Shown here: positions 11,099 through 29,289 of the stretch, piece after piece
Numbering within the stretch: the first letter of the stretch is position 1
Layout of the letters: every line of letters begins with the position of its first letter
Virus record (IMG/VR): IMGVR_UViG_3300044730_002015
Location: 1 to 64,000 of that record
DNA: 64,000 bases
Direction: 5' to 3' (one strand)
Source: a virus
Notes under the pieces: model-generated
Told to the model about the DNA's origin: nothing
Databases searched by the model: none
The model's input: the letters and a program-made list of their open reading frames with translations, nothing else
Translations under genes and position numbers: made by a program

Positions 11099-11980
11099 TC
11101 AACGGTTCCTGTGTTTGGGCTGCCGTTGATAGGATTTGGGATTCTTGTGTGTGCCCGATCCCCGGGCCACCCGTTGTGCGGCTCGTGCCACAGGATTGCG
11201 CGGTGCAGGGGTGGATTTCTTGGGTGCTTCCAGCACACGATAACTTTTCTTCTCTGGCCGGTCTAAAACTTGTAATGCGGTTTTGATGTCATTGTCCAGA
11301 GCAGCGATTTCTAAAGCACGGAAGTTATCTCGACCTACACTGGTCCCGGGTGTTACTCTTATAAAATTGTATAAAGTATCAATCCATATCTTAGCAGTCC
11401 GACTATTCCTACCGCCAAGATTCAACAAGGGTCTTATGGTCTTGGATATGAGATCCGTTAGTGATGTGGCCTCGACATTAGGAAAAACTTTTTTCAATCC
11501 ATCATAGATCTGATCAGCATCAGTGGCTTCATAAACTTCTTCTATGTACTCGTCTATCACACGATGATTTTCAGCGTCTTCGCTGGTCTGCTCTACACCA
11601 AAGTTACGATCAAATCTCGCGCCCGGTGAAATGGGATTTTTCATCTGCGTGTAGAAAGGTTCTAGATCTGGACCCACTGAATCTTCGGGACCTTCGGTGG
11701 GTGTACCTGTGTAGTTTTGTGTGGGATAGTCGCGAGGTGTGTTCAGTAAATCTCTCAACGGACCTTCTTTGTTGTTGTATTCTTCCCAGTCGTAGCTGGT
11801 GTCTATGCCCTGCAAGGATTCTTCCTTGACCTGCTGTTCGTGGAACTGAGCATTGGGGCCGGCTAGATTGCCTGCCTGGGGGTTGCCTGCCACATCCACG
11901 GGATCAGGATCCATGAGCTGTACCACATCTCGGGGAAGGCTGTGTCCTGCGCGATATTCAAACAAGTCGTCGATTATCAT
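11099..11980 (-). CDS. modular hypothetical protein, putative head-internal (MIIDDLFE...) with a basic C-terminal RNPVA...KH module
   Basis: CTS-like N-terminus, acidic body, basic tail after VLE|A. Confidence 0.7.
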   Translation of the reverse strand: MIIDDLFEYRAGHSLPRDVVQLMDPDPVDVAGNPQAGNLAGPNAQFHEQQVKEESLQGIDTSYDWEEYNNKEGPLRDLLNTPRDYPTQNYTGTPTEGPEDSVGPDLEPFYTQMKNPISPGARFDRNFGVEQTSEDAENHRVIDEYIEEVYEATDADQIYDGLKKVFPNVEATSLTDLISKTIRPLLNLGGRNSRTAKIWIDTLYNFIRVTPGTSVGRDNFRALEIAALDNDIKTALQVLDRPEKKSYRVLEAPKKSTPAPRNPVARAAQRVARGSGTHKNPKSYQRQPKHRNR

Positions 11981-12717
11981 CGCTCTTCCATGTAATCTTG
12001 TACCACTGGCTTGGTGTCTTGTTCCATCATCTGCTCATGCACCTGATCGATGGCTTTTTTGGCATCGGCGATGCTGGCAAATCCTGTGCCTATTTCTTTT
12101 TCATCTACTTTGACCACAAAGCCATCTGTCATGTTGCCGCAGATGTCAGCTGTTTTTTCTCCGTTGGGCCCGATTGTGACACGATCCACGGGCTTCAATG
12201 AATCCCCGCCACGATTGCTGTCTTTGCGTTTGAGATCAGTGTCAGTTTTCTTTTCTTTGGCAACTGTGTCCAAAAAGTCTTTGAGGTCTCGTGCAGAACC
12301 TTTGACCACTATGTCTTCGCCAATGGCTGATTCTGCCACAGCTGATTCATTTTTTTCACGCCCCGCACAGTGCGCACGTTGGCTAAATCCTCGAGGGTTG
12401 GCGCAGTTGATGGACTTCTTGTATTTTTCTGACCATTTTTCTGTTACAGGTTCTTGTGCTTTTTTGTTGTGCAGTTCTTGATATAATGTTTCAACCTGCT
12501 GATCTAATTCTGCAGCCTGATCCTGTTCTACCTGCGACATCTTTCTGGCCAGGGCAGTATCTTCTGCTGAGTCGCCTACCAACTTACTGGGAATTTTGCT
12601 GGCGGGATCTGTGCCGCGCAGGTATCCTACGAACTTGGGGCCGGCACCTTGATTGAGATCACCCTCGGCGATGCGCTGCAGTCGGGCTGCTATGTCGTAG
12701 ATGTCCTGATTGCTCAT
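11977..12717 (-). CDS. modular hypothetical protein with a KWSxKYKKSINCxNPRGFSQRAHC module
   Basis: short modules separated by IAE|G, VTE|K and VAE|S sites. Confidence 0.7.
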   Translation of the reverse strand: MSNQDIYDIAARLQRIAEGDLNQGAGPKFVGYLRGTDPASKIPSKLVGDSAEDTALARKMSQVEQDQAAELDQQVETLYQELHNKKAQEPVTEKWSEKYKKSINCANPRGFSQRAHCAGREKNESAVAESAIGEDIVVKGSARDLKDFLDTVAKEKKTDTDLKRKDSNRGGDSLKPVDRVTIGPNGEKTADICGNMTDGFVVKVDEKEIGTGFASIADAKKAIDQVHEQMMEQDTKPVVQDYMEER

Positions 12718-13154
12718 GCACGAGCTTTCTTGAGAAAGCTACGCAGCATCCAATTGTGCTTGCCGTGTGCGTCCTGGCGCTCGGCCAAGAAGTTTAGTAT
12801 GCCTTCTTGATTTTCTGCCTTGGCGCTGGCAATGGCTGCGCCAATCAGGGCCAAGAGTTTTTCATTGTCAGTTTTGAGTTCTTCGAACATGAGTTCGGCT
12901 CGGGGGATCTTGACTTGATCTTGGATAACGCTGAGTTCTTGATAGCGCGACAGTGATCCTGGTGCGTACACATCCAGCACACGGATGTATTCGGCTGCGA
13001 GATCAGTGGATTCAAAAACTTCTGTGGCTAGTTTATCAAAGAACTTGTGATACTGACTAAAGTCAGGACCTTCCACGTTCCAATGGAAACTTTTGGCCTT
13101 GAGGTAAAAAGCAAAACTGCTGGCTAATAGTTGTTTGAGATCGTCGGCTAACAT
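12714..13154 (-). CDS. dps: Dps / DNA-binding ferritin-like protein
   Basis: FHWNVEGPDFSQYHKFF...DLAAEYIR and KHNWML motifs (first Dps His is replaced: KAKSFHW); probable start MLADD at 13154. Confidence 0.9.
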   Translation of the reverse strand: MLADDLKQLLASSFAFYLKAKSFHWNVEGPDFSQYHKFFDKLATEVFESTDLAAEYIRVLDVYAPGSLSRYQELSVIQDQVKIPRAELMFEELKTDNEKLLALIGAAIASAKAENQEGILNFLAERQDAHGKHNWMLRSFLKKARA

Positions 13155-13567
13155 TTGGTATCCTTCTTGGATTCTTGCATGGGCTGTATGCCCTGTTCGT
13201 GCTGGCTCAAGATATAATCCCAAACTGACACCAGATTCATTTTTGCTCCGGCGATTTTTTCCTGTACCCATTCCGGCAAGTTTTCACCGTCGGCTATGGC
13301 ATCGTGCAGCCCTTTCACTGCTCTCAGCATGGTATGCAAGTTGCTCTTGGCCATGCCTGACTCGTCGTCATACTCGCCATCGTAGTTTTCTTTGATGTTG
13401 CGTGGGGTCTTCCGTGCTTTTTTGGGTCTGCTGTTGGCATACTCGCGGCTTTTGTCGTAGACGCCTTGACCTATGGGGCCGCGTCGCTGTGTAGCGCCCA
13501 GGGGCATGGCAACCGTGGCAATACCGCCTGCAACAGTGGATTCTTCAATTATTTCTTGTAGTCGCAT
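13148..13567 (-). CDS. hypothetical protein, putative head-internal (MRLQEIIEE)
   Basis: CTS-like N-terminus; LPEWVQEKI module; TAAATA 7 nt upstream. Confidence 0.7.
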   Translation of the reverse strand: MRLQEIIEESTVAGGIATVAMPLGATQRRGPIGQGVYDKSREYANSRPKKARKTPRNIKENYDGEYDDESGMAKSNLHTMLRAVKGLHDAIADGENLPEWVQEKIAGAKMNLVSVWDYILSQHEQGIQPMQESKKDTKC

Positions 13568-13585
13568 AATAATATATTTAGCGTT

Positions 13586-13795
13586 TTAAGTGTTGCTGCG
13601 TTTCTTGCCTGATTTCATGTTAGCGCACCAATGATACATACGCCCACGCTCTCCACCGTATTTTTTAGCCCGGGCACGCAGATCTGTCACACTACCCTGG
13701 CAACTGGCACCTGCACGTTTCACTCTGCCGGGACGGCTTCGTCCTTTGACTTTCTTGTCAGCAAAGTTTTCTGTGATGAATTCATGTGCTCTCAT
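13586..13795 (-). CDS. small basic protein, putative head-internal (MRAHEFITE)
   Basis: N-terminus resembles the T4 IPII/III CTS MKTYQEFIAE; Arg/Lys-rich. Confidence 0.7.
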   Translation of the reverse strand: MRAHEFITENFADKKVKGRSRPGRVKRAGASCQGSVTDLRARAKKYGGERGRMYHWCANMKSGKKRSNT

Positions 13796-14907
13796 CGTGC
13801 TGTGGCCACTAATCTAATGTCTCTGGCAACTTTGGCCATGTCTTTACCCTGTGCAGCTGCGGCAGGAACAGCATACATTTCTTCATCACCAGCACCGATG
13901 TTTAACACCTCGCCGGTGGCTGTGTCGTAGCCATGCACTTCAATGCCAGGCATCTGCTCCAAGCGTTGCCACACACGCTGTCCACCAGGACTTTGCTTGC
14001 GATCCGATACCAGGGTCAGTCCTAGATCAGTTATGAGCCTGCGATAAAATTCTGCTGCTGGCACGTCATTGTCGGGACTGGCATACAGGCCTGCCACTAT
14101 GAAACTGTCAGGGTTGCCAGGATAGCGGCTGCCAAACACCGTGAGTGTGGAGCGATTGGTCTCAGTGTTGAAAAGATTGTAGGTTATTTGTCCACCAAAC
14201 TGATCACGATACACGCTGTGGGTTTTGTCTATGTCTAATACCTTGCGGCCCAACAATGACATTTTTTCAGGCGAGATATTGCCGCCACGATTGGGCAGTT
14301 GATCCGGATTGGCACCTTTGCCTTTGACCTTGGAAAGTATTTTCACTTCTGTGACACCTTGTCCACTGTATTGCCGGTAAAGATCCACATACCGCTGGAC
14401 ATCTTGTTCCCAACCCCGGGGATCGCGATTCTTGTACTGTAGGCCCAAACTCATGGCATAGGCTTCTGAGGCACTGAGCCACGAACCAGGTTCCTTATGA
14501 TCGGCCATGCGGGTCAGCACTCTGCGTGTCTGTGGATCCAAGCGTTCCAGTCGGTAAGGATCCAACTGGCCTTCCGCCACACATTGTTCCCAGACATTTT
14601 TTCCAGGCTTGTGTTTGTCCCAGAAACCTGCACCGGCATCGGTCTGCTGGCCACTCCTGCGTATCTTATAACCCAGACTTTTCACATAGTCATACATGGT
14701 ACGAGCGATGCCTTGGCCACGATAGCGTTCATCCACTTCCAGATCTTGTGGCATTAACTCGCCGTCGTAGTCCACGAACAGCACCGATCCCAAGGGTCGG
14801 CCTCCTGCTGACGCTTGCACCATGATCTCATCCTCTTCTCGTTCCAGGCTCATGTCTATGCCTTGGAATGAGTCTTGGCCTATGATGTCTTGGGGCAACA
14901 TGATCAA
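13792..14907 (-). CDS. multi-module protein with two GNAT acetyltransferase-like domains
   Basis: VDERYRGQGIARTMY...QTDAGAGFW (canonical GNAT); second domain AAEFYRRL...SDRKQSPGGQRVW; linkers CVAE|G and GVTE|V. Confidence 0.75.
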   Translation of the reverse strand: MIMLPQDIIGQDSFQGIDMSLEREEDEIMVQASAGGRPLGSVLFVDYDGELMPQDLEVDERYRGQGIARTMYDYVKSLGYKIRRSGQQTDAGAGFWDKHKPGKNVWEQCVAEGQLDPYRLERLDPQTRRVLTRMADHKEPGSWLSASEAYAMSLGLQYKNRDPRGWEQDVQRYVDLYRQYSGQGVTEVKILSKVKGKGANPDQLPNRGGNISPEKMSLLGRKVLDIDKTHSVYRDQFGGQITYNLFNTETNRSTLTVFGSRYPGNPDSFIVAGLYASPDNDVPAAEFYRRLITDLGLTLVSDRKQSPGGQRVWQRLEQMPGIEVHGYDTATGEVLNIGAGDEEMYAVPAAAAQGKDMAKVARDIRLVATAR

Positions 14908-15164
14908 TCCAACTGACTGGCCAACTGCTGATACAAAGCCAGTTTTTTATCTACACTCATGGCCATCCAACGCTGCATCCAATCACTGTTGGGTCTTGTG
15001 CCCATGGCGTCTTTGACCAGATCGCTGATGTTCTGATTCATGGTCTGTTCCGTGGGTTCAGTGCCTTCCGCCATACCCGGCTCAGAATCTGAGCCTTCTG
15101 ACACTGCTTGTTGCTGTTGTTCGTTAAGTAGATCTAGATAGGATCTCATGAGTTCTGCTGACAT
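14904..15164 (-). CDS. small hypothetical protein (MSAELMRSYLDLLNE)
   Basis: AAGGAG RBS; AVSE|G and GMAE|G linkers. Confidence 0.7.
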   Translation of the reverse strand: MSAELMRSYLDLLNEQQQQAVSEGSDSEPGMAEGTEPTEQTMNQNISDLVKDAMGTRPNSDWMQRWMAMSVDKKLALYQQLASQLD

Positions 15165-15186
15165 TTGATTTCTCCTTTATCTATGT

Positions 15187-16239
15187 CTAATCACCACGCA
15201 GGGCCTGCAACAATGCACGGGCCACCACGCGGTCTTTTTCTTTTTCCTCGTCCGCCAACTGGGCATAATCCTGTCGCATGAGTTTGGCTCGTTGGTCGAG
15301 TTTGGCTTCTAACTTACCGGCCGCACGCAGTTTTTCTGTGTCTGCGAACTGATCGGGATTTTGCACGAATGCCTGGGCAGTGACATTCCAGCCCTTGTGT
15401 ATGGCATCGCTGATGGCTTCGATGTCTGTGACTCCGGAATCGATCATCTTCTTGGCATAGGCAGCAGACTTCAAGTTGGCCTGCCAGCCAAAGGTGTTGC
15501 CGGGAGTGCTGCGACCATAACCATAGGCACGGTCCAAGGCTTCGTCACTGATCATGGCCAACTGTGCCACGGTGAGAGGCTGTGCCCGGCCTTCCGAGAC
15601 ACCTCGATCCTTGATATCTCTGTCTGCCGGCCGGAACCCCTGGTATTTTTTTGCCATAGCAGTAAAATCAACACCTTTAGATTTTGCAAAATCAGTAAAG
15701 TCTGCTCTGATTGATTTTTTAGGTAGTTCCTCAAAGCCCATTTGCAAACTCCACCCAAAGTCTTGGCGTAGTTGTTCAAGTGTTTTAGGGTCCACTGATC
15801 CTTGACGAGCCTTACCGAACTCTTTGATCAGATCTTGCAATAAATACCAATCTCTGTCAGCATCAGTTACAGGACGGGTCAAGGTCGTGGCCGGTAGTGA
15901 TTTGTCGTGTGGCTCGTAAATATCTTTCCTAACATTAAACCCTTGGTCTTCAAGTTCTTCTGCTACATGATCTCTGACCTGTGTATCCATGGCATAAAAG
16001 GCTCGGATACCTGCCTTCATGCCAGCAGACATAAATTTTCGACCGACTTTAATAATAGCGGCTGCATCAGCACCGGCGCCTTCGTCGCTGTAAGTATCTA
16101 CAAAATCTTCGCCAATTGGAATAATAGCAGTACCGTATTCAAATGGCCCGTTGCCTTCGCTGCCGCCTGGTGCGAATTCGTTCAAGCGACCTTCTCGAAC
16201 ATTCGCCTGATTTTCTGTTATGATATCTTGTATTTTCAT
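15187..16239 (-). CDS. multi-module protein (MKIQDIITE) with a C-terminal RyR-repeat-like domain
   Basis: CTS-like start; IHKGW...DYAQLADEEKEKDR matches the RyR domain pattern HxxW...YxxLxxxEKxxDR. Confidence 0.65.
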   Translation of the reverse strand: MKIQDIITENQANVREGRLNEFAPGGSEGNGPFEYGTAIIPIGEDFVDTYSDEGAGADAAAIIKVGRKFMSAGMKAGIRAFYAMDTQVRDHVAEELEDQGFNVRKDIYEPHDKSLPATTLTRPVTDADRDWYLLQDLIKEFGKARQGSVDPKTLEQLRQDFGWSLQMGFEELPKKSIRADFTDFAKSKGVDFTAMAKKYQGFRPADRDIKDRGVSEGRAQPLTVAQLAMISDEALDRAYGYGRSTPGNTFGWQANLKSAAYAKKMIDSGVTDIEAISDAIHKGWNVTAQAFVQNPDQFADTEKLRAAGKLEAKLDQRAKLMRQDYAQLADEEKEKDRVVARALLQALRGD

Positions 16240-16260
16240 TTTTGATTCCTTGTCTAAGTA

Positions 16261-16869
16261 TTATTTACGAGTCTGTGACAGCATGGATGCTGCGATAGCC
16301 AACATACTTTTCATGCGTTCGATCTCTCCGGGCGTTTCTTTCCAACCCACGGTTATCTGCCCGATGAATTTTCCAGGCTCAGGAGGAACACTGATCCTGC
16401 AGCCATATCTCATGCCTTTTTCTATGTACCAAAGGCCCACTTCGCTTTGTGCTGAGAGATATTCAACGCAGGGCACTTCTCCGGCCATGAGTGCCACAAC
16501 ATCTCGATTGTTGGCAGCATTGGCAGTGAACAAGCCAACGTCTATGCCTTCTTTGGTTTTGTCTCTGCCTTCACGAGTGTATGCACGATACAGCACACGG
16601 CTGCCCAGTATTGGATCTACTTTGAATATGGCCACTACTTCGGCCTGCGTGTTCTTGAACAGATGTGTGACAGCATCATCCAGGCGATTTTCAGCCAGGG
16701 TAGGCAATCGTTGTTGTTCTTTATAGGTACCAACAATCAAATCGAGATTTTTGTAAATCAAGAATCCCATGAATGCCAGTACTGCCATGATGACCAAAGC
16801 CACCAACTTGAATGGCGAATCCACATAGGTCAAGATTTTATCAAGATAATCTTTTTTAACCACTGCCAT
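16261..16869 (-). CDS. putative T4 T-like holin (one TM plus a periplasmic GAF-like domain)
   Basis: single N-terminal TM (LVALVIMAVLAFMGFLIY); C-terminal CRISVPPEPGKFIGQITVGW resembles the GAF end of holin T. Confidence 0.5.
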   Translation of the reverse strand: MAVVKKDYLDKILTYVDSPFKLVALVIMAVLAFMGFLIYKNLDLIVGTYKEQQRLPTLAENRLDDAVTHLFKNTQAEVVAIFKVDPILGSRVLYRAYTREGRDKTKEGIDVGLFTANAANNRDVVALMAGEVPCVEYLSAQSEVGLWYIEKGMRYGCRISVPPEPGKFIGQITVGWKETPGEIERMKSMLAIAASMLSQTRK

Positions 16870-16871
16870 GA

Positions 16872-19800
16872 TTATCTCATCTCCGGTACAACTTCTAATT
16901 CCACACCTACTAGATCCGGTCTGTTGCGCCCCATCCATCCGGCGGCGAATCTATTGGCGTCGGTCTGGCTGTTGCCTATGCCACCAAATGTATGCACCAC
17001 TTCATTGGTGTTGGCATTGCGTATCTGCCACTGACCAGTGAACTCGCCTTGTGATCGTTGTGCTGCATACTGGGCGATCAATCGGTCTGCTTGTTGATTT
17101 ACATTAGGCTGGGCCTGCACGGGTTGGGCTTCGATGCTAATGACCACTCGGCCCTGTGCCGTCAATGCTGAACGCACCGAGTCCATGGCAGCATCGGCAT
17201 TGGGGGCATCAACACTGAGGCTGTCTCGTCCATAGCCATCGCTGCGTCGCTCGGTCCACTGTACTCGATATCTTTGTTGACCATTGGTACCTTGCAAACG
17301 CTGTTGCAATTGTTCGCTGTCTTTCTTGTCGTCTTTGTGCTGTTGCTGATATTGTTTTACCTCTGCGGCTGAGGCCGGTTCGGCTAGGAAACTGTCGGGA
17401 TCATTGCGGCGGAGTTCGAGCCAGTGTTTGTCTTGCCGTTCAGCTTCGGCCTTGGCCAGTGCAGTATTTTCAGCGGCCACCAGCAGGGTCCGGCCGCTGT
17501 CTGTGTCAGTGATGCGCCAGATGGTGGGACGATCCACGATCTTTTTTGCCACCTGTGCTCTACGGCTCAGCTCGGGTTCAGTTTCGGACTTTTCTCGCGT
17601 GAAGAAAGGGTAACCTTTGCCGCTGTGTCGCACCAAAGCAGTTTCGTTGGCCGATTCTAGACTCCAGTCCTTGATGGTGTCAATGACTTCACCAGTGTCG
17701 GTATTGACGACTTCATATTCTTTGGCATCAGCACGGCTGCGGGGCGGTGCTTCCTTGGCCAGGACTTGACGTGCCCATGACTTCTTGAGTTCTTCGGGTG
17801 TGATCATACCTGCGCTGTATCTAGCAAATAATTCTAGTGCATCTTTAGCACCTTCTGTTTCAACATCGGCTTTGATTTTGGTACCTTTGTCGGACCGGGA
17901 GTACTGGGTTTCACGGTATCCGCTCAAAAGTTTGTACAGTTTCTTGCCATACTCTTGGCGCTCTAGTTCAGGTCTGCTGGCTATGTACATGGCTCTAGCA
18001 AAACGCAGCATGGTATCTTCCAGTGCGCCAATCTCTTCGTCGCCTTTGGCCAGATAATCGCCGCCCGGTGAGCGGAACTCGATGTAGCCATCTTTGATGT
18101 GTGCTGAAGTGTATTTGTCGCGACCCACTCCATCTCGCACCATGTCAGCGGCTAACTCAATGAGATTCTTTTTCATGAGATCCATGGCTGCTGCTGTTTT
18201 TTCTGCGCCGGTCATGGACTGTGCATCCTGCTCACGAACTTGCTGTCTACGGCTGCGCTGCACATCCTGCAGTTTGCTCAGGGCCGAACGTGCGTAACTG
18301 TTGGCACTACGTCCAAAACGTTCCAGCACATACTGATCACCCAGGAACATTATGAGTTTGACATAGTCCACTGCACCACCCTTGAAAGGCACGCTGATGC
18401 CCATGTGTAAACCAGTTGATGAGTTGGTGTAGGCATCGCCGTCGCTGTTGGCCCAGTCTATAACAGTCTGCAGAGATTCCAGCGCCTGCTTGAGTGGCAT
18501 GGGCGGTGATACCACTTCCAGTCCTGTTTCGTCGCTGGGATCGTCGGGATCTAGGCTGCCATCGGGCTCGATGATCCAAAGACCCGGCTTTCTTGACACA
18601 CTGTGATAACCAGTGCTGCCACGCACTTGAGCATCACCGCCCAAGGCTTGGCGTAAACTGTCAGCGATGTCATCCACAGTGCGATCGCCACCGCTGCTTT
18701 CACCGCCACGCCAGTAGGGCCAGTCTAAACCAAACTCACTGCCAACGTCACTCATGTATCGATATTCTTGTTCCAACCAGTCACTTTCGTCGTAGTCGCT
18801 GGATTCGCCGACCGTGTCAAAATAATCATCTCTGGCTTGATCATAACGATCATCTTCGGTATCCACACTGGTTTCCACATCTGCCCGATACAGTTCTCTG
18901 GCCAGCGCTTCAATCTTTTCTCTCTGTTCCTCGGACTCTTCACTGGTGTCTATGCCCAGTTCTTCCGCAGCACGCTCTCTATAGTTGTCCTGCTCGTCGG
19001 GCCACACATTCTCATCATAGTAGTCGCGCACGATCTGATCTGCATTTTGGTTCCAGCCTTCGGCTATCTGTTCGCTACGCCATTCGTAGAAAGATTCCTG
19101 CATTTCTTGCCGCAATCTATTGGCAGACGATCTGCCAACACCGTTGTCGCCACCTTGGAAAAAATCCACTACCTCATCGATGCTGTAGGCACGCTCGTCC
19201 ATGTCATAGTCAGCTTCGTAGTCTTCTTCGTTGTCACCATCGCCGGCATCACGGAATATGAGCTCGGCTTCAAAGCCGGCCTGTATGCCCTCGGCTTCGT
19301 CGGAGTCGGCCCACTTTTTCAGTTCGCCTGGACTCATTTTTACTTCAAACAAATCTTCGCTGTTTTGTGATTCTGTGATGCCACGTGCCCAATCGTCGGG
19401 TGTGACGCCATATTTGGCCACCCACTGATCATGCAACTTTTGAGGTGTGATATCATATCGTCGAGATATGGTTTGCATGATCTTGTCTATGTTGTCATAG
19501 TTGGGATTTTCCAACTGTTTGACACCTTTGGCCAGATCATCCAGATACTTTTCACGCTGATAACTTTCTGCTATGTCTGTGAATATTTTGTCGTGCTGTC
19601 GGCCGTAATCAACCATGACACGTCCGGCCACGGTGTTGGCATCGGCTTCCACTCTAGCCAACTCTTGGCTGTTCATGTCGTGATGTGCCACTCCATCGAT
19701 AAACTGTTTCACGTGCTGCAGTTCATGTGTGTAGGTACGCAATACATCTGCAAGATATCTGTCGCCAACGTACACATATACTTCACTGTCATCGGCTGTG

Positions 19801-21059
19801 TTCTTCCACTGCGTGACACCAAACGTGTTGTGATCCCGGGCCCAGGATCTATCGCTGGTAAAGGTGACTGGTGGTACTTGATCGGGTTTCAGCGCCAGTG
19901 ATCTCAAGATATCGGGTATGGCACGATTGATCTCCGAACTCAAACGGCTGTCCACTCCACGGAATGTGACACGGCCTTCGGTCAATTTACCGTTGGTCCT
20001 GGCTCGGGGAGGTACACCAGCACGAGAGATTTTGAATCCCAACTGTCGAGCTGCCTTCTTTAAACTATCGGGCCGGATGTCTACTGTGAGTGCGTTGCTG
20101 AATCTGGGATCATTTCGTTCTGCTTGGGAAGGAATATAACCCGAAGCTGCTTCCTTCAAAGGCTCGTCTGCAAATCCCCAGCGAAACTCAGTCATGATTT
20201 CCATGCCTGTCACACGCTTGACCAAATCCCAGATTTCTCTCTGCTGGCCTTGCTTGATCAGTTGACCCAGCAACTTTTTCTGCTCGGCAGTGGCTTTTCG
20301 ATAAAATTCGTTCAGTTCCATGATGCCGATGTTGCCAGCATACGCAGCTTCTTCTATGCTGAGTTCATCACTCTTGGCCTGATCACGGGCCTGGATCAAT
20401 TGTCGGATCAGTCCACGATTGCGCAGTAGTTTGAACACTAGATTTTCTGCAGAAAATTCCCCGGCACGGTCCAGACCGGCTTTTCTCATGCGTTTGATTT
20501 TGTCCAGCAGCAGAGACAATTGCTCATATTGGGAATTTTCCACAGCCTGCTCTATGGCATGACCTAACTTTTTATATTTTGCCTGCACTGTGTTGTCGTC
20601 TATGGGCACTCGCTGCCTGCGCGGCATTTTCTGCCATTGGTCACGTGTGAGAGAATAAACACCAGCACTGTGATGCTGATCGGCTGCGCCTTGCACATAC
20701 AATTCCACGTCTGAATCTTTTATTTTTATATTATAGCGATCGTTGTACAGGCTTTTTTTGGCGTCAAACAATTCGCGATACACTTCATCGTTGTCCAATC
20801 GCTTCATGTCAATGATCAGGTGCAGATCAATGTCGGAATAGGGTGTGTAGGTATAACCTGCGTTGCTGCCACTGACAGTGATGTCATCTATCTGTGCGGA
20901 ATTCAATCCAAGATATTCTCTAAAATCGTCGGCTATGCGCAGCAAGGCCTGGCGTACCTCGGGTTTTATTTGATCCCCGTCAAACAATTGGGGATTGAGA
21001 TCTTGATGCAACTGCACAGCATCCTTGAGATTGTACTGTTCTAATTCCGTGATATCCAT
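16872..21059 (-). CDS. 1395-aa polyvalent protein: Pol-beta-type nucleotidyltransferase + zincin metallopeptidase + putative amidoligase
   Basis: SGSNAGY...SDIDLH (NTase); HELQH...EADAN (zincin); GFEAEL, IEPDGSL, GLEVVSPP, NSSTGLHMGIS, YIEFRSPGG (amidoligase). Confidence 0.8.
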   Translation of the reverse strand: MDITELEQYNLKDAVQLHQDLNPQLFDGDQIKPEVRQALLRIADDFREYLGLNSAQIDDITVSGSNAGYTYTPYSDIDLHLIIDMKRLDNDEVYRELFDAKKSLYNDRYNIKIKDSDVELYVQGAADQHHSAGVYSLTRDQWQKMPRRQRVPIDDNTVQAKYKKLGHAIEQAVENSQYEQLSLLLDKIKRMRKAGLDRAGEFSAENLVFKLLRNRGLIRQLIQARDQAKSDELSIEEAAYAGNIGIMELNEFYRKATAEQKKLLGQLIKQGQQREIWDLVKRVTGMEIMTEFRWGFADEPLKEAASGYIPSQAERNDPRFSNALTVDIRPDSLKKAARQLGFKISRAGVPPRARTNGKLTEGRVTFRGVDSRLSSEINRAIPDILRSLALKPDQVPPVTFTSDRSWARDHNTFGVTQWKNTADDSEVYVYVGDRYLADVLRTYTHELQHVKQFIDGVAHHDMNSQELARVEADANTVAGRVMVDYGRQHDKIFTDIAESYQREKYLDDLAKGVKQLENPNYDNIDKIMQTISRRYDITPQKLHDQWVAKYGVTPDDWARGITESQNSEDLFEVKMSPGELKKWADSDEAEGIQAGFEAELIFRDAGDGDNEEDYEADYDMDERAYSIDEVVDFFQGGDNGVGRSSANRLRQEMQESFYEWRSEQIAEGWNQNADQIVRDYYDENVWPDEQDNYRERAAEELGIDTSEESEEQREKIEALARELYRADVETSVDTEDDRYDQARDDYFDTVGESSDYDESDWLEQEYRYMSDVGSEFGLDWPYWRGGESSGGDRTVDDIADSLRQALGGDAQVRGSTGYHSVSRKPGLWIIEPDGSLDPDDPSDETGLEVVSPPMPLKQALESLQTVIDWANSDGDAYTNSSTGLHMGISVPFKGGAVDYVKLIMFLGDQYVLERFGRSANSYARSALSKLQDVQRSRRQQVREQDAQSMTGAEKTAAAMDLMKKNLIELAADMVRDGVGRDKYTSAHIKDGYIEFRSPGGDYLAKGDEEIGALEDTMLRFARAMYIASRPELERQEYGKKLYKLLSGYRETQYSRSDKGTKIKADVETEGAKDALELFARYSAGMITPEELKKSWARQVLAKEAPPRSRADAKEYEVVNTDTGEVIDTIKDWSLESANETALVRHSGKGYPFFTREKSETEPELSRRAQVAKKIVDRPTIWRITDTDSGRTLLVAAENTALAKAEAERQDKHWLELRRNDPDSFLAEPASAAEVKQYQQQHKDDKKDSEQLQQRLQGTNGQQRYRVQWTERRSDGYGRDSLSVDAPNADAAMDSVRSALTAQGRVVISIEAQPVQAQPNVNQQADRLIAQYAAQRSQGEFTGQWQIRNANTNEVVHTFGGIGNSQTDANRFAAGWMGRNRPDLVGVELEVVPEMR

Positions 21060-21097
21060 GATTTAATATTTAGCAGTTTTTTGACTAGGCACGGGCC

Positions 21098-21129
21098 AAA
21101 AAAATAGCGCAGAATTATCTGCGCTATTT
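21098..21129 (-). terminator. rho-independent terminator
   Basis: 12-bp perfect stem aaatagcgcaga/tctgcgctattt, 4-nt loop, U-tract on the minus strand downstream of the GT gene. Confidence 0.8.
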
Positions 21130-21154
21130 CCAACCCGGGGGGTTGCCAGCAATA

Positions 21155-22735: not shown

Positions 22736-23380
22736 TTATTTATTGTTCGCGCCCATGGCTGCAGCCACGGTTTCAAAGTAATCACGTCCTGCTACTCGGA
22801 GATTGGGATCCACTCCAGTGGCACGGAAAAATCCTTCGCGATCGCCGGCAGCGACCATGGCACGCACATCGGTACTGCGCAGATTGGGATCACCCGCAAT
22901 GCCTTCGGCATCCTGTGCTTCAGGTGTGCCACCGTCGGTGAATGAATCAAAATTGTACACAGCACGCAAGGGTTGGCCTTTGCTGTTGACTTCACGGCCG
23001 TTTGTGGCCATGGGAAAACGCATGGCTTCTTCTCCGGCACCGTACATGACAACAGCATTTTTGTAGCCTTTTTTATTCAAATATTCGGCGGCAAAATCAC
23101 TCATGGGTATGGCAGGATCCATGACAAAATGATCACGATCCTGGGGCAATATTGCTCGCCACCAGGCCAATTTTTCAGAACCTGTCAAAGGATTTTTTTC
23201 AGGATCACTATCGCGAGGACTAATAAACAGATACCAGTCAGCATTCAATTCACCGGCCTTTCTTTTTAGGGCATTGATCAGTCGTTGGTGCCCGGCATTG
23301 GGAGGATTAAATCTACCAAATGCATAGACCACAGTGTCTTTGTTGCCACGTGTGTTTTCAAACAATTCAAATAATAACAT
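22736..23380 (-). CDS. cytidylyltransferase-like (HIGH superfamily) nucleotidyltransferase
   Basis: FGRFNPPNAGH, KNPL, RSTDVR motifs; CTS-like MLLFELFE start. Confidence 0.8.
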   Translation of the reverse strand: MLLFELFENTRGNKDTVVYAFGRFNPPNAGHQRLINALKRKAGELNADWYLFISPRDSDPEKNPLTGSEKLAWWRAILPQDRDHFVMDPAIPMSDFAAEYLNKKGYKNAVVMYGAGEEAMRFPMATNGREVNSKGQPLRAVYNFDSFTDGGTPEAQDAEGIAGDPNLRSTDVRAMVAAGDREGFFRATGVDPNLRVAGRDYFETVAAAMGANNK

Positions 23381-26336: not shown

Positions 26337-27041
26337 TTAGCGTGGCTCAATACGATATGTCTTTCTTAGCAGTCCAGGGAATGACATTTCAAACAGCATC
26401 TGTATATGCGGGTTGCTGGTATCAATGAACATATTGCTGGTCATCCAGCGGCGCCGCTGCCCCGTCATACGCTGTTGTAGACTAGGGCCCAGCCTGATTT
26501 CTTGTGAGTAATTTTCGCAGAATTTTATCAGTTTTTCCACCACGGGCTCTTCCAGCCAGCGTTCTCGAAAATAGTGCCTTAATGTGTGCTCGGGATCTTT
26601 GAGTTGGATCACGTCGGGTTCATGTGTGAGTTCAGCAGTGACCAGTTTCACGTGTTGTAGCTGTTGCCAGAACTTCTGTTCCTGCAGCCGGTGATAATCA
26701 TTGGTGTAGATCTGCAGCCAGTTGTCGTACAATACCACTTTGTCCTGATCATTGGATTCCAACCAGTCCAGGCATTCGTGCAAGGCCAGCACGTCATCAG
26801 CAGAAAAACTCTTGCCGGGACGAGTACGATTACCACGCCAGGACCCACCATAATTTATGTTACGCTTGAGTATCTGATCTCTGAATTCTATGTTTTCATC
26901 CAGGGTGCTGTGATCCCTCACACGGCCCAGTCTGGGCGACCTCAGCACTGCTGCTTCAAAAAGATAAGCAGAGATACTGTAGCGATAGCGGTTGTAAAAC
27001 AGTGAACCGCGGGGTTGGGATTTAGACTCTAATAAGTCCAT
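26337..27041 (-). CDS. hypothetical protein
   Basis: 234-aa ORF overlapping the end of clpA. Confidence 0.7.
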   Translation of the reverse strand: MDLLESKSQPRGSLFYNRYRYSISAYLFEAAVLRSPRLGRVRDHSTLDENIEFRDQILKRNINYGGSWRGNRTRPGKSFSADDVLALHECLDWLESNDQDKVVLYDNWLQIYTNDYHRLQEQKFWQQLQHVKLVTAELTHEPDVIQLKDPEHTLRHYFRERWLEEPVVEKLIKFCENYSQEIRLGPSLQQRMTGQRRRWMTSNMFIDTSNPHIQMLFEMSFPGLLRKTYRIEPR

Positions 27042-29289
27042 TGGTATCCACAGATCCTATCAAGTTGCTGGTAATGTCAAAGGTCACAGAATCTCCAACA
27101 TAATCGGCCATGATTTCACAGTTCATGAGATCATCAAACAGGATCTTGCGGCTAAGCGGCACACGAACTAGTTCATCGATTTTGCGGCTCAAGGGTCTAG
27201 CACCCATTTTGGCATCATAGCCTTTGTCTGCCAGGTGATCGATCAAGGCTTCCGAGAAGTTGATGCGAATGTTTTTGGGAGCCATGGCCTGTTGCAGTTG
27301 CTTGAGGAATTTCAGCACGATACGCTTGATGGCCAGGGTATCCAGTTTCTGGAATTTACATATGGCATCAATACGATTGCGTATCTCGGGTTTGAAATAG
27401 TCTTTGAGTGCGCGATCTTCTTCACCGGATTTGGCCAAGGCCACCCCAAAGCCAATGGCATTGTTGTCATTGTCTCTGGCACCCAGGTTGCTGGTCATGA
27501 TGATGATGGTATTTTTACAAGACACTTTCTTGCCATTGCTGCCAGTCACAGTGCCTTCGTCCAGCATCTGTAGCAAGATGTTGGAAACATCGGGGTGCGC
27601 TTTTTCTATTTCGTCAAACAAGATCACTGAATAGGGACTCTTGCTGAGATCATTGATGAGTTTGCCACCACCTAAACTGTGATCTTCATAGCCCACATAT
27701 CCCGGAGGCGCTCCAATTAGTGTTGAGAGATTGTGCTTCTCTTGGAATTCGCTCATGTCATAGCGCAACAGTTTCATATCCAGCGCGTCACTAAGTGCCT
27801 TGGCCAGTTCAGTTTTTCCTGTGCCTGTGGGTCCAAGGAACAGGAACGATGCCAAGGGCCTGGTATCAACATTGATGCCGGCAAAGGAAACAAATATGCG
27901 ATCGATCACAGGGTCTATCACTTGATCTTGTCCAAACAGCCGATCTTTCACTGTGTCTGCCAAACGCTTGATCTTGTCTGTGGTCTTGCTGGCCAGTTTG
28001 TCTCGCGGTATGTCAGTGAACTTGGCGCAGGCAGTGATGATATCTTCACGCACCACCACAGCACCTTCGGCATCGTTCACACGATAACCAGCGCAGGCGG
28101 CATCCAACAGGTCAATGCTTTTGTCGGGATTTTTACGATCAGTGATATAACGATCGCTGAGTTCTACCGCGGCCTTCACAGCATCTCTGTCGATCTGCAC
28201 TGAGTGGAATGTTTCCAGTCTGGGCTGCAGGCCTGTCAAGATATTTTCCGTGTGCTCAATGCTGGGTTCGTCTATGGCCACTTTGTAGAATCTACGCATG
28301 AGTGCGCGATCCTTTTCAAATGACTCATAGTATTCTTCCCAGGTGGTACAGGCGATGACCTTCAAGTTTCCTTTGGTGATGGCAGGCTTGATCATGTTGG
28401 CCAGATCCATGCTGGAGTTATTGGCAGCGCCAGCGCCTTTCATGGCGTGTGCTTCGTCAATGAACAAAATGCAGTTGTCCTTGGCTGCCAAGGCACCGAG
28501 AACGGCCTTGACTTTTTCTTCAAAGTCTCCGCGATATTTGCTGCCTGCCAACACATCCGCAATGCTCATAGACCACACTTCGTGATTCTGCACAAACTTG
28601 GGCACTTCGCCTGCGATCACAGCCTGTGCCAGGCCTTCCACGATGGCAGTTTTGCCCACACCGGGATCGCCCACCAGCAACACATTTGATTTGAAACGCT
28701 TGGCCAGCACAGTGATCATTTCTTTGAGTTCTGTGGCGCGACCTATCACGGGTTCATACTTGCCGGCTTCGGCCAGTGCTGTCATGTTGATGCAGTACTC
28801 TTCTAATATTTCTGTGGCTTGCTTTTTGCCCAGTTTAGGTTCACGCTGTTTGTGATGGTGACTCTGCCAGTATTCTACAAATTCTTGTTTGTTTAAACCG
28901 TACTTGCAGAAGAAATAGTGTGCGTGGCTGTTGTTTTCACTCATGATCGACAGATACAGATCGATGGGTATCAAGAACCTGCGATTGCTAAACACCACCT
29001 GTGTCACAGCGCGATTGATCATGCGCTCGAGACCATTGGTCTTTTTGGGTACGAACTCTTCAGGATCAACAGATTCCAACTCTAGATTTTTCATGGCCTG
29101 CAGATAAGCTTCGATGTCGGCATCCAGGCTTTCAATGTCTACACCAAAGTTCTGCACCTGATTGCGGAATTCGTGATTGCGTATCAGTGCCAGGCTCACG
29201 TGCTCCAAGGTAACATATTCGTGACGCATATCAATGGCCAAGTCTCGGGCCATGTCAATGATGCTTTCCACTTCGGGGTTATACTGCAT
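27022..29289 (-). CDS. clpA: ClpA-like AAA+ chaperone / Clp protease ATP-binding subunit
   Basis: Clp N-domain HEYVTLEH; Walker A GDPGVGKT and GPTGTGKT; IDEAH; DMSEFQEKH, LIGAPPGYVG, FDEIEKAH; IGF loop; no ClpB middle domain. Confidence 0.93.
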   Translation of the reverse strand: MQYNPEVESIIDMARDLAIDMRHEYVTLEHVSLALIRNHEFRNQVQNFGVDIESLDADIEAYLQAMKNLELESVDPEEFVPKKTNGLERMINRAVTQVVFSNRRFLIPIDLYLSIMSENNSHAHYFFCKYGLNKQEFVEYWQSHHHKQREPKLGKKQATEILEEYCINMTALAEAGKYEPVIGRATELKEMITVLAKRFKSNVLLVGDPGVGKTAIVEGLAQAVIAGEVPKFVQNHEVWSMSIADVLAGSKYRGDFEEKVKAVLGALAAKDNCILFIDEAHAMKGAGAANNSSMDLANMIKPAITKGNLKVIACTTWEEYYESFEKDRALMRRFYKVAIDEPSIEHTENILTGLQPRLETFHSVQIDRDAVKAAVELSDRYITDRKNPDKSIDLLDAACAGYRVNDAEGAVVVREDIITACAKFTDIPRDKLASKTTDKIKRLADTVKDRLFGQDQVIDPVIDRIFVSFAGINVDTRPLASFLFLGPTGTGKTELAKALSDALDMKLLRYDMSEFQEKHNLSTLIGAPPGYVGYEDHSLGGGKLINDLSKSPYSVILFDEIEKAHPDVSNILLQMLDEGTVTGSNGKKVSCKNTIIIMTSNLGARDNDNNAIGFGVALAKSGEEDRALKDYFKPEIRNRIDAICKFQKLDTLAIKRIVLKFLKQLQQAMAPKNIRINFSEALIDHLADKGYDAKMGARPLSRKIDELVRVPLSRKILFDDLMNCEIMADYVGDSVTFDITSNLIGSVDTNGLIRV

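Follow-up and report, generated by a model that had tools for sequence, protein, structure and literature searches.

The gene cluster and its setting

The stretch analysed here, called the window below, is the first 64 kb of the 169.5-kb viral contig IMGVR_UViG_3300044730_002015 of IMG/VR, a contig whose completeness is put at about 48%. It carries a gene cluster (Table 1) whose proteins consist of modules punctuated by short linkers of the type [VIL]-x-E/[GSA], where the slash marks the predicted cut and the residues before it are numbered backwards from P1, the Glu. Every gene of the cluster lies on the minus strand and several neighbours overlap as ATGA. The original prediction, made from the letters of the window, had listed 13 such linkers and read the proteins as polyproteins of interchangeable modules; all 13 are present, in minus-strand open reading frames (ORFs).

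The family-B DNA polymerase of the contig shares 41-48% identity with those of Sinorhizobium phage Phosso, Agrobacterium phage Atu_ph07 and the Rak2/GAP32 group, and T4-like fibre and baseplate genes are also found on the contig. The source phage is therefore an uncultured jumbo phage of the T4 superfamily. Megablast of the cluster region against cultured phages gave zero matches, and Pfam and PHROG scans of the cluster proteins returned only GNAT, ferritin, amidoligase and unknown families, besides a phrog for the nucleotidyltransferase (NTase). For comparison we used related IMG/VR loci (L004 to L007), two near-complete relatives (G006 and G007) and a collection of family proteins (P-numbers).

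Table 1. Genes, modules, leaders and linker sites of the cluster
Feature	Positions in window	Strand	Remarks
1395-aa multi-module ('polyvalent') protein	16872-21059	minus	
ITE, residues 3-5	21045-21053	minus	predicted N-terminal processing site; homologues begin MNIxE/LD or MDIxE/LE
Pol-beta-type NTase, residues 6-237	20349-21044	minus	phrog_36119, E=3.6e-43; ends SIEE/A (20349-20357)
module X, residues 238-303	20151-20348	minus	begins AAYAGNIGIME; ends PLKE/A (20151-20159)
SGYIP module, residues 304-361	19977-20150	minus	ends KLTE/G (19977-19985)
zincin-like module, residues 362-498	19566-19976	minus	HELQH motif; ends DIAE/S (19566-19574)
module Y, residues 499-563	19371-19565	minus	ends GITE/S (19371-19379); pLDDT 83-90; breakpoints L502, R559
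LFE (DLFE/V), residues 570-572	19344-19352	minus	second of two tandem sites ahead of amidoligase part
C-terminal part, residues 573-1395	16872-19343	minus	acidic region, amidoligase core, small repeated domains
membrane protein, about 200 aa	16261-16938	minus	probable start Met24 (16261-16869); one predicted transmembrane helix; phrog_31287
350-aa protein	15187-16239	minus	
leader MKIQDIITE/	16213-16239	minus	350-aa protein
NVRE/G	16192-16200	minus	350-aa protein
RLNE/F	16177-16185	minus	350-aa protein
RGVSE/G (GVSE/G)	15592-15600	minus	350-aa protein
86-aa ORF	14904-15164	minus	
AVSE/G	15096-15104	minus	86-aa ORF
GMAE/G	15066-15074	minus	86-aa ORF
371-aa three-module protein	13792-14907	minus	
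GNAT 1	14584-14883	minus	371-aa protein; Pfam GNAT
CVAE/G	14572-14580	minus	371-aa protein, residues 110-112
helical middle module	14356-14571	minus	371-aa protein
GVTE/V	14347-14355	minus	371-aa protein, residues 185-187
GNAT-like module 2 (VKILSKVKGKG...)	13795-14346	minus	371-aa protein
69-aa highly basic protein	13586-13795	minus	
leader MRAHEFITE/	13769-13795	minus	69-aa protein
139-aa protein	13148-13567	minus	
leader MRLQEIIEE/	13541-13567	minus	139-aa protein
Dps/ferritin-like gene	12714-13154	minus	probable start Met40 (MLADDLK); PF00210, E=2.3e-22
246-aa protein	11977-12717	minus	
RIAE/G	12664-12672	minus	246-aa protein
PVTE/K	12439-12447	minus	246-aa protein
AVAE/S	12331-12339	minus	246-aa protein
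293-aa protein	11099-11980	minus	
leader MIIDDLFE/	11957-11980	minus	293-aa protein; second type, resembles internal ...EDLFE/V site

Modules of the 1395-aa protein end on linker sites

Homologues of the 1395-aa protein number 1477; they are 767-2442 aa long and most lie on contigs of 100-370 kb. From its MDITE/L N-terminus it runs through the NTase, module X, the SGYIP module, the zincin-like module and module Y to the C-terminal part containing the amidoligase. In BLASTP comparisons with related IMG/VR loci, breakpoints of homology split residues 1-572 into modules that end on the sites. Homology of the NTase to relatives stops at residue 237, where a dip of the AlphaFold confidence score (pLDDT) at 231-240 covers the site 235-237, and the standalone NTase homologues of cyanophage S-B68 and Maribacter phage Molly stop exactly where the window's module stops. 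Module X recurs in small standalone proteins (P0134-P0138) behind QLNE/, KVDE/, GLGE/ or VLKE/, with 5 contexts in all. The SGYIP module, for which the best 120 of the 1477 homologues were counted, has x-x-E directly ahead in 119/119. It forms the C-terminus of shorter relatives (...NGK[FSY] followed by the stop), so that the LTE behind it in the window is an added linker belonging to neither neighbour. Breakpoints of the zincin-like module fall at residues 496-502, and a stretch resembling module Y is the C-terminus of a 177-aa protein in G006. At the amidoligase part, a tandem [LVIM]xE/[DS]...L[DFL]E/V stands ahead of KMSP[GS] in 83/83 homologues, behind upstream sequences that vary widely. 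The NTase and the amidoligase part, both said in the original prediction to start or end at such sites, are indeed delimited by them, the first by SIEE/A and the second by the tandem site.

The amidoligase core itself matches PF12224 (E=3.3e-9, residues 794-889). The zincin claim is carried by the HExxH motif and by Pfam matches to DUF3920 and DUF6782, both sub-threshold; Foldseek of a 620-residue model returned weak CD-NTase and ANT matches only and no peptidase. From residue 573 to 1395 the protein is collinear with its counterparts in L005, L006 and L007, and no conserved linker sites were found between the domains of this part. Residues ~1115-1395 (16872-17700) comprise several similar small alpha/beta domains, with indels between relatives at 1311-1337 and no [VIL]xE between domains.

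Module order also differs among relatives. The L005 counterpart (55% identity) runs NTase, zincin, another module, SGYIP, amidoligase, so that two modules are permuted; the zincins of the window and L005 are only 28% identical, their flanks more than 50%. In L007 the amidoligase part stands alone as a 702-aa gene opening with MRLFDIINE/DQLDE/V, which aligns to ...GITE/SQNSEDLFE/V of the window.

AlphaFold models place most of these sites in flexible regions. In the model of residues 1-620, the sites 301-303, 359-361 and 570-572 fall in segments with pLDDT below 50, among them 290-311 and 562-573, and the site 561-563 abuts the latter. Counting the 371-aa protein as well, 6/7 tested sites lie in or beside low-confidence inter-domain segments.

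The 371-aa protein

Two GNAT domains had been proposed, and for this protein both Pfam and the fold comparison agree: the best Foldseek matches of its model are tandem-GNAT proteins. Its confident domains cover residues 9-108 and 199-371, and CVAE/G and GVTE/V fall in the segments 109-123 and 176-198, where pLDDT is below 50.

For the second GNAT module, a search restricted to 204-650 aa collected 129 proteins, of which the best 120 (211-618 aa) were examined. Glu stands directly ahead of the module in 120/120, V, I, L or M occupies P3 in almost every one, and at least 15 unrelated upstream contexts occur, such as QGVTE/, QEIEE/, DELNE/, SGINE/, NLVAE/ and KELDE/. In an alignment of 83 sequences, E187 is an invariant column. 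Standalone forms have a leader directly attached, MRAQEFQE/V in G006 and MRARELTE/V in P0032. The middle module reappears in P0086 behind QQGVRE/G, a protein that contains four QQGVxE/ sites.

Modules follow either a leader or an internal linker

Many genes here and in the relatives open with MRAxEF[IV]xE or M-I-[IL]-D-D-L-F-E. Strict matches to the leader number 3-5 per genome versus 0.03-0.07 expected; on the window's contig there are 3 versus 0.03. In the cluster, the gene-start leaders have 5-9 residues (MKIQDIITE, MRLQEIIEE, MRAHEFITE, MIIDDLFE and MDITE), in line with the targeting peptides of T4-type internal proteins, which have about 6-19 residues and end in [L/I/V]-x-E. The second type takes the forms MILDDLFE/A and MILDEIFE/A in L005 and L006. 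MRAxEF[IV]xE resembles MKTYQEFIAE, the capsid-targeting sequence (CTS) of T4.

The same module can follow either a leader or an internal site. The 69-aa module is reached by MRAHEFITE/NFADKK in the window and by ...ETVDE/NFADGK in L006, where it is internal, as it also is in a 614-aa protein of G006. Conversely, the module behind ...EPVTE/KWSEKYKK of the window's 246-aa protein forms a gene of its own in L005 and G006, directly after MRAQEFVSE/KWSEKYK. A third pair is MRANEFVKE/GIMDTIKG and ...DVEE/GFMDTIKG. As read from these sequences, the end of a leader and an internal linker are equivalent.

Across several hundred relatives, every traceable module has x-x-Glu before it, whatever stands upstream. 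With the permuted order, the standalone and fused forms and the cassette swap described below, the proposed architecture of interchangeable modules bounded by [VIL]-x-E is supported.

Position, not number, of the motif

The enrichment in motif counts is largely compositional, and the signal lies in where the sites are. [VIL]xE[GSA] is observed 18 times in the cluster versus 10.8 in composition-preserving shuffles (p=0.02). Glu makes up 7.6% of the cluster proteins versus 3.7% of the contig's other ORFs, and a similar mild excess of the motif is seen in the remainder of the contig. Among 255 proteins of the family, [VIL]xE occurs 13.3 times per 1000 residues, a density identical to that of all other ORFs of two related genomes.

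Concerning position, 7/21 clustered homology breakpoints of the window lie at most 4 residues from [VIL]xE, where 2.5 are expected (p=0.007); for the same 21 breakpoints against [VIL]xE[GSAV], the expectation is 1.2 (p=0.00025, permutation test). In the 255 family members, a site is present within -2 to +6 of 546 of the 1161 non-collinear left breakpoints versus 123 expected, a 4.4-fold excess; the breakpoints are not independent events since these sequences are related. Relative to composition, the ratio for [VIL]xE is 1.05 in the family and drops to 0.86 when the detected boundary sites are left out, while other proteins of the same phages give 1.20, a weak hint that the motif is avoided within modules.

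Thus the sites are not randomly placed relative to domain boundaries, as judged both by the breakpoints and by the invariant P1 Glu. The coincidence announced in the original prediction is confirmed, though not for every domain boundary: the small repeated domains at residues 1115-1395 of the 1395-aa protein have no sites between them.

A cassette swap ending at a linker

Window and L004 are ~90% identical in DNA save for one cassette, 15069-16233 on the minus strand. In blastn, the match breaks off 2 codons inside the 350-aa gene and is picked up again at the 86-aa ORF's QQQ.V.E/ linker. At this place L004 carries an 805-aa gene that ends in the same module of ~60 residues, matched by residues 15-86 of the 86-aa ORF in BLASTP.

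Codon choice at QGVxE linkers is also uneven in this phage group: Gln is CAA in 11/11 cases, Glu is GAA in 20/20 and Gly is GGT in 15/20, with background frequencies of 54%, 75% and 34%, respectively, the sample being small and partly orthologous. Moreover, the DNA of the RGVSEG linker in the 350-aa gene shares 17/18 nt with the linker DNA of an L005 protein unrelated to it. This silent-codon bias is suggestive of recombination joints. The idea that linker DNA serves as such joints is thus partly supported by one swap ending at a linker and by the QGVxE bias, and finds its limit in most other linkers, which share 3 residues only and leave P2 free, 9 nt being too short for homologous exchange. 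The AT-rich modules pointed out in the same prediction do appear as dips to a GC content of 0.40 (versus ~0.49) at 11320-11559 and 15640-15879, dips of only ~3 standard deviations for windows of 240 nt; the second lies inside the cassette swapped relative to L004.

Other genes of the cluster and its surroundings

The leader of the 350-aa protein, together with QGVAE/G, is also found in P0086 and P0093. Its C-terminal part had been labelled RyR-like, a label that Pfam did not confirm (no RyR match at E up to 1). No homologue of the 350-, 293- and 133-aa proteins was present in the collected set, and their internal sites (GVSE/G and others) are therefore assigned from linker typology alone.

The 69-aa basic protein is of a type with the small basic internal proteins of T4; in other phages it occurs as a fusion with GNAT, HAD-like or deaminase-containing proteins. 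The family of the 139-aa protein (L005 21256-21456, L006 9712-9879) continues after the leader with E/[ST]TV[AS]G[GN]IATV.QPLGG. This stretch resembles the gp23-type capsid protein of G006 (314242-315438) after its candidate maturation site, ...KYLKE/NASAGSTVSGNIATLNRV, and the family may mimic the N-terminal arm of the capsid protein. The Dps/ferritin-like gene is without leader; it occupies the same place in L005, L006, G006 and G007, where homologues begin at the equivalent Met.

Motifs resembling the late promoter TAAATA are found upstream of the 1395-, 350-, 139- and 133-aa genes. At 21059-21130, a terminator-like element made of a GC-rich hairpin and then a T-run precedes a TAAATA 5 bases ahead of the ATG of the 1395-aa gene, a spacing too tight for a ribosome-binding site. 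The membrane protein gene lies directly 3' of the 1395-aa gene and is 97% identical in L004. Outside the cluster, a 214-aa protein (22736-23380) displays the second leader type, MLLFELFE/N, and a GRFNPPNAGH motif typical of nucleotidylyltransferases, which makes it another candidate cargo enzyme.

A prohead protease in near-complete relatives

Both near-complete relatives that possess the cargo family encode a Peptidase_S77 above the Pfam cut-off: G006, of 315.8 kb and 91% completeness, and G007, of 235.8 kb and 100% completeness. In G007 the gene belongs to a T4-like head block together with a portal-like ORF, a scaffold-like ORF that is large and acidic, and a gp23-type (PF07068) capsid gene, and in G006 it stands beside an acidic scaffold-like ORF and a gp23-type capsid gene; protease and capsid genes were family-tested, the portal-like and scaffold-like labels coming from reading of the ORFs. 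The scaffold-like ORFs and the N-terminal regions of the capsid proteins of both phages are rich in [LIVM]xE.

Discussion

Our analysis favours, with a probability of roughly 60%, the view that the cluster is a capsid-cargo gene set of a T4-superfamily jumbo phage, whose products would be cut by a gp21-type prohead protease at [VIL]-x-E. The cargo proteins would be made late and addressed to the prohead core by their short N-terminal leader (MRAxEF[IV]xE, MxxDDLFE or MDITE), in analogy with the T4 CTS. The prohead protease, a Peptidase_S77, would then cut after the Glu of [V/I/L]-x-E. A single leader could in this way bring several modules into the capsid, internal sites would release them separately, and all would later be ejected with the DNA. 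The loaded modules would include the NTase, the zincin-like and amidoligase modules, the GNATs and the small basic proteins. Because each module would carry its own upstream site, modules could be fused, split, permuted and exchanged between genes or phages without loss of loading or release. The head maturation protease, named as the cutting enzyme in the original prediction, is the best-supported candidate: leaders and sites fit the T4 rule and Peptidase_S77 is encoded by G006 and G007, while the window's own contig is without it. The mechanism as a whole is one that we infer.

Several observations weigh against this interpretation. Peptidase_S77 was found neither on the window's contig (~48% complete) nor on four related fragments, absences that are uninformative since all of these are fragments. 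The cargo cluster is not adjacent to head genes, and the second GNAT module has no match in cultured phages by tblastn. Not every site conforms: P3 is Q, T or A at ~20% of the SGYIP junctions, the DIAE/S site (residues 496-498) is modelled within a long helix, and the leader of the 371-aa protein, MLPQDIIGQ, ends in Gln, not Glu. Tandem GNAT proteins are usually one working unit, so that the benefit of cutting between the two is not obvious. The motif density is not raised, and hence many [VIL]xE sites must stay uncut. Finally, the homologue sets are redundant and their large counts do not represent independent events.

Chance or the composition of Glu-rich proteins is a very improbable source of the coincidence between sites and boundaries. 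It would account for a motif density at background level, for the modest excess in counts and for the two thirds of window breakpoints that lie farther than 4 residues from a site. It is contradicted by the Glu that never varies ahead of three unrelated modules (83-120 sequences for each), by the excess at the 1161 breakpoints and the window permutation, and by the equivalence of leaders and linkers. An unlikely but more serious alternative is that the junctions are scars left by fusion or recombination of N-terminal leaders, the long proteins acting uncut with at most the leader processed. The ATGA overlaps mean that fusion or fission would need very few changes, the same modules occur both fused and split, the QGVxE codon bias and the cassette ending at a linker point to exchange, and some polyvalent proteins are delivered full-length (PMC5512222). 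Scars, however, would decay, whereas in 83-120 homologues of three modules the P1 Glu is invariant and P3 hydrophobic while P2, P4 and the upstream residues vary. Only the last three leader residues are kept, exactly the part that serves processing in T4; moreover, an LTE linker was added after a module that ends the protein elsewhere, and the sites lie in flexible segments.

Cleavage at the same junctions might be carried out by another enzyme: the embedded zincin-like module by autoprocessing, a phage Clp, or a host protease after injection. We regard this as improbable. The 1395-aa protein does contain an HExxH module, and autoprocessing of polyvalent proteins by metallopeptidases has been proposed by Iyer et al. 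(PMC5512222). Equally regular punctuation is nevertheless found in proteins free of peptidase (the 371-aa and 246-aa proteins, P0086 and the 614-aa protein of G006), and the zincin is itself an exchangeable module of low identity between relatives. As for Clp, a ClpA/B-like ATPase (phrog_4871) is encoded at 27022-29289 of the window, and ClpP- and ClpX-looking N-termini, by resemblance only, occur beyond it at contig positions 129924-130514 and 147173-148384. Clp proteases are not site-specific. Motif and leader fit the T4 gp21 rule specifically.

The closest known parallel to the proposed capsid cargo is the set of T4 internal proteins IPI-III and Alt, which carry a short address peptide ending in [I/L]-x-E, MKTYQEFIAE in T4 and MRAxEF[IV]xE here (PMC9026906, PMC5694885, PMC3012670). 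In the T4 CTS, residues 4 and 7 act in targeting, whereas Ile at 8 and Glu at 10 act in processing (PMC9026906). T4 gp21 cuts Alt at ITE-6 and LTE-619, close to MDITE/ and KLTE/ of the window, and itself at LIE-9 (PMC5694885, PMC9026906). In both systems variable mature parts follow a conserved leader and include small basic proteins and host-modifying enzymes, and the window's relatives, as T4, possess an S77 protease and T4-type head genes. The likeness is functional, as Pfam and PHROG scans found no sequence homology of the mature parts to IPI-III or Alt. T4 cargo proteins are single units that lose short terminal peptides; here, as known from the genes alone, unrelated modules are strung together with a site at internal boundaries, and the same module may be standalone or internal.

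The proteins also overlap with the class of polyvalent proteins (Iyer, Burroughs, Anand, de Souza and Aravind 2017; PMC5512222), mosaics of 2-15 unrelated effector or enzyme domains, often with a zincin-like metallopeptidase, that are predicted to be packaged in the capsid and to enter the host together with the DNA. The window has at least two unrelated domains in one protein, namely NTase, amidoligase (PF12224) and the HExxH module, besides the two GNATs of the 371-aa protein. The amidoligase is not among the domains of that work (0 occurrences). Its authors propose autoproteolysis by the embedded metallopeptidase or uncut delivery, and describe no conserved [VIL]-x-E punctuation, no CTS-like leader and no prohead-protease processing.

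In phiKZ, 201phi2-1 and SPN3US, many inner-body and ejection proteins are cut after Glu by the gp21-related gp175 or gp245, and one protein may have several sites (PMC5694885, PMC10052503, PMC9026906). Their motif has a small P3 (A/S/G-x-E), where the boundaries of the window have V, I or L. Except at the C-terminus of the protease itself, all known cuts there take off N-terminal propeptides, which are broken into fragments and discarded, and none frees functional modules from one another; these propeptides are long, unlike the leaders found here. Polyproteins of RNA viruses and retroviruses, in which a viral protease acting at short consensus linkers turns one translation product into separate functional proteins, provide an analogy only: proteases and biology are unrelated, and here we would be dealing with a cargo-loading device of a double-stranded DNA phage, not a strategy of gene expression. 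Our literature search found no paper on effector polyproteins delimited by prohead-protease sites.

A broader proposal, to which we lend tentative credence, is that 'cargo polyproteins' are a general strategy of T4-like jumbo phages, in which one short capsid address and a repeated prohead-protease site would allow any module to be loaded, freed inside the capsid and injected, and the linker would be both cut site and exchange junction through its conserved DNA (CAAGGTGTC...GAAGG), giving combinatorial effector cassettes with a logic comparable to that of polymorphic toxins.

If the capsid-cargo reading is true, large phages would deliver many enzymes with their DNA at infection and could renew this arsenal quickly by swapping modules, and the T4 capsid-targeting rule would extend from single proteins to polyproteins. 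The dozens of unknown modules would become candidate effectors of host takeover or anti-defence. Leader and [VIL]-x-E rule would together allow injected proteins to be predicted across thousands of genomes of uncultured phages, and the arrangement suggests a natural multi-cargo design for protein delivery by phage capsids.

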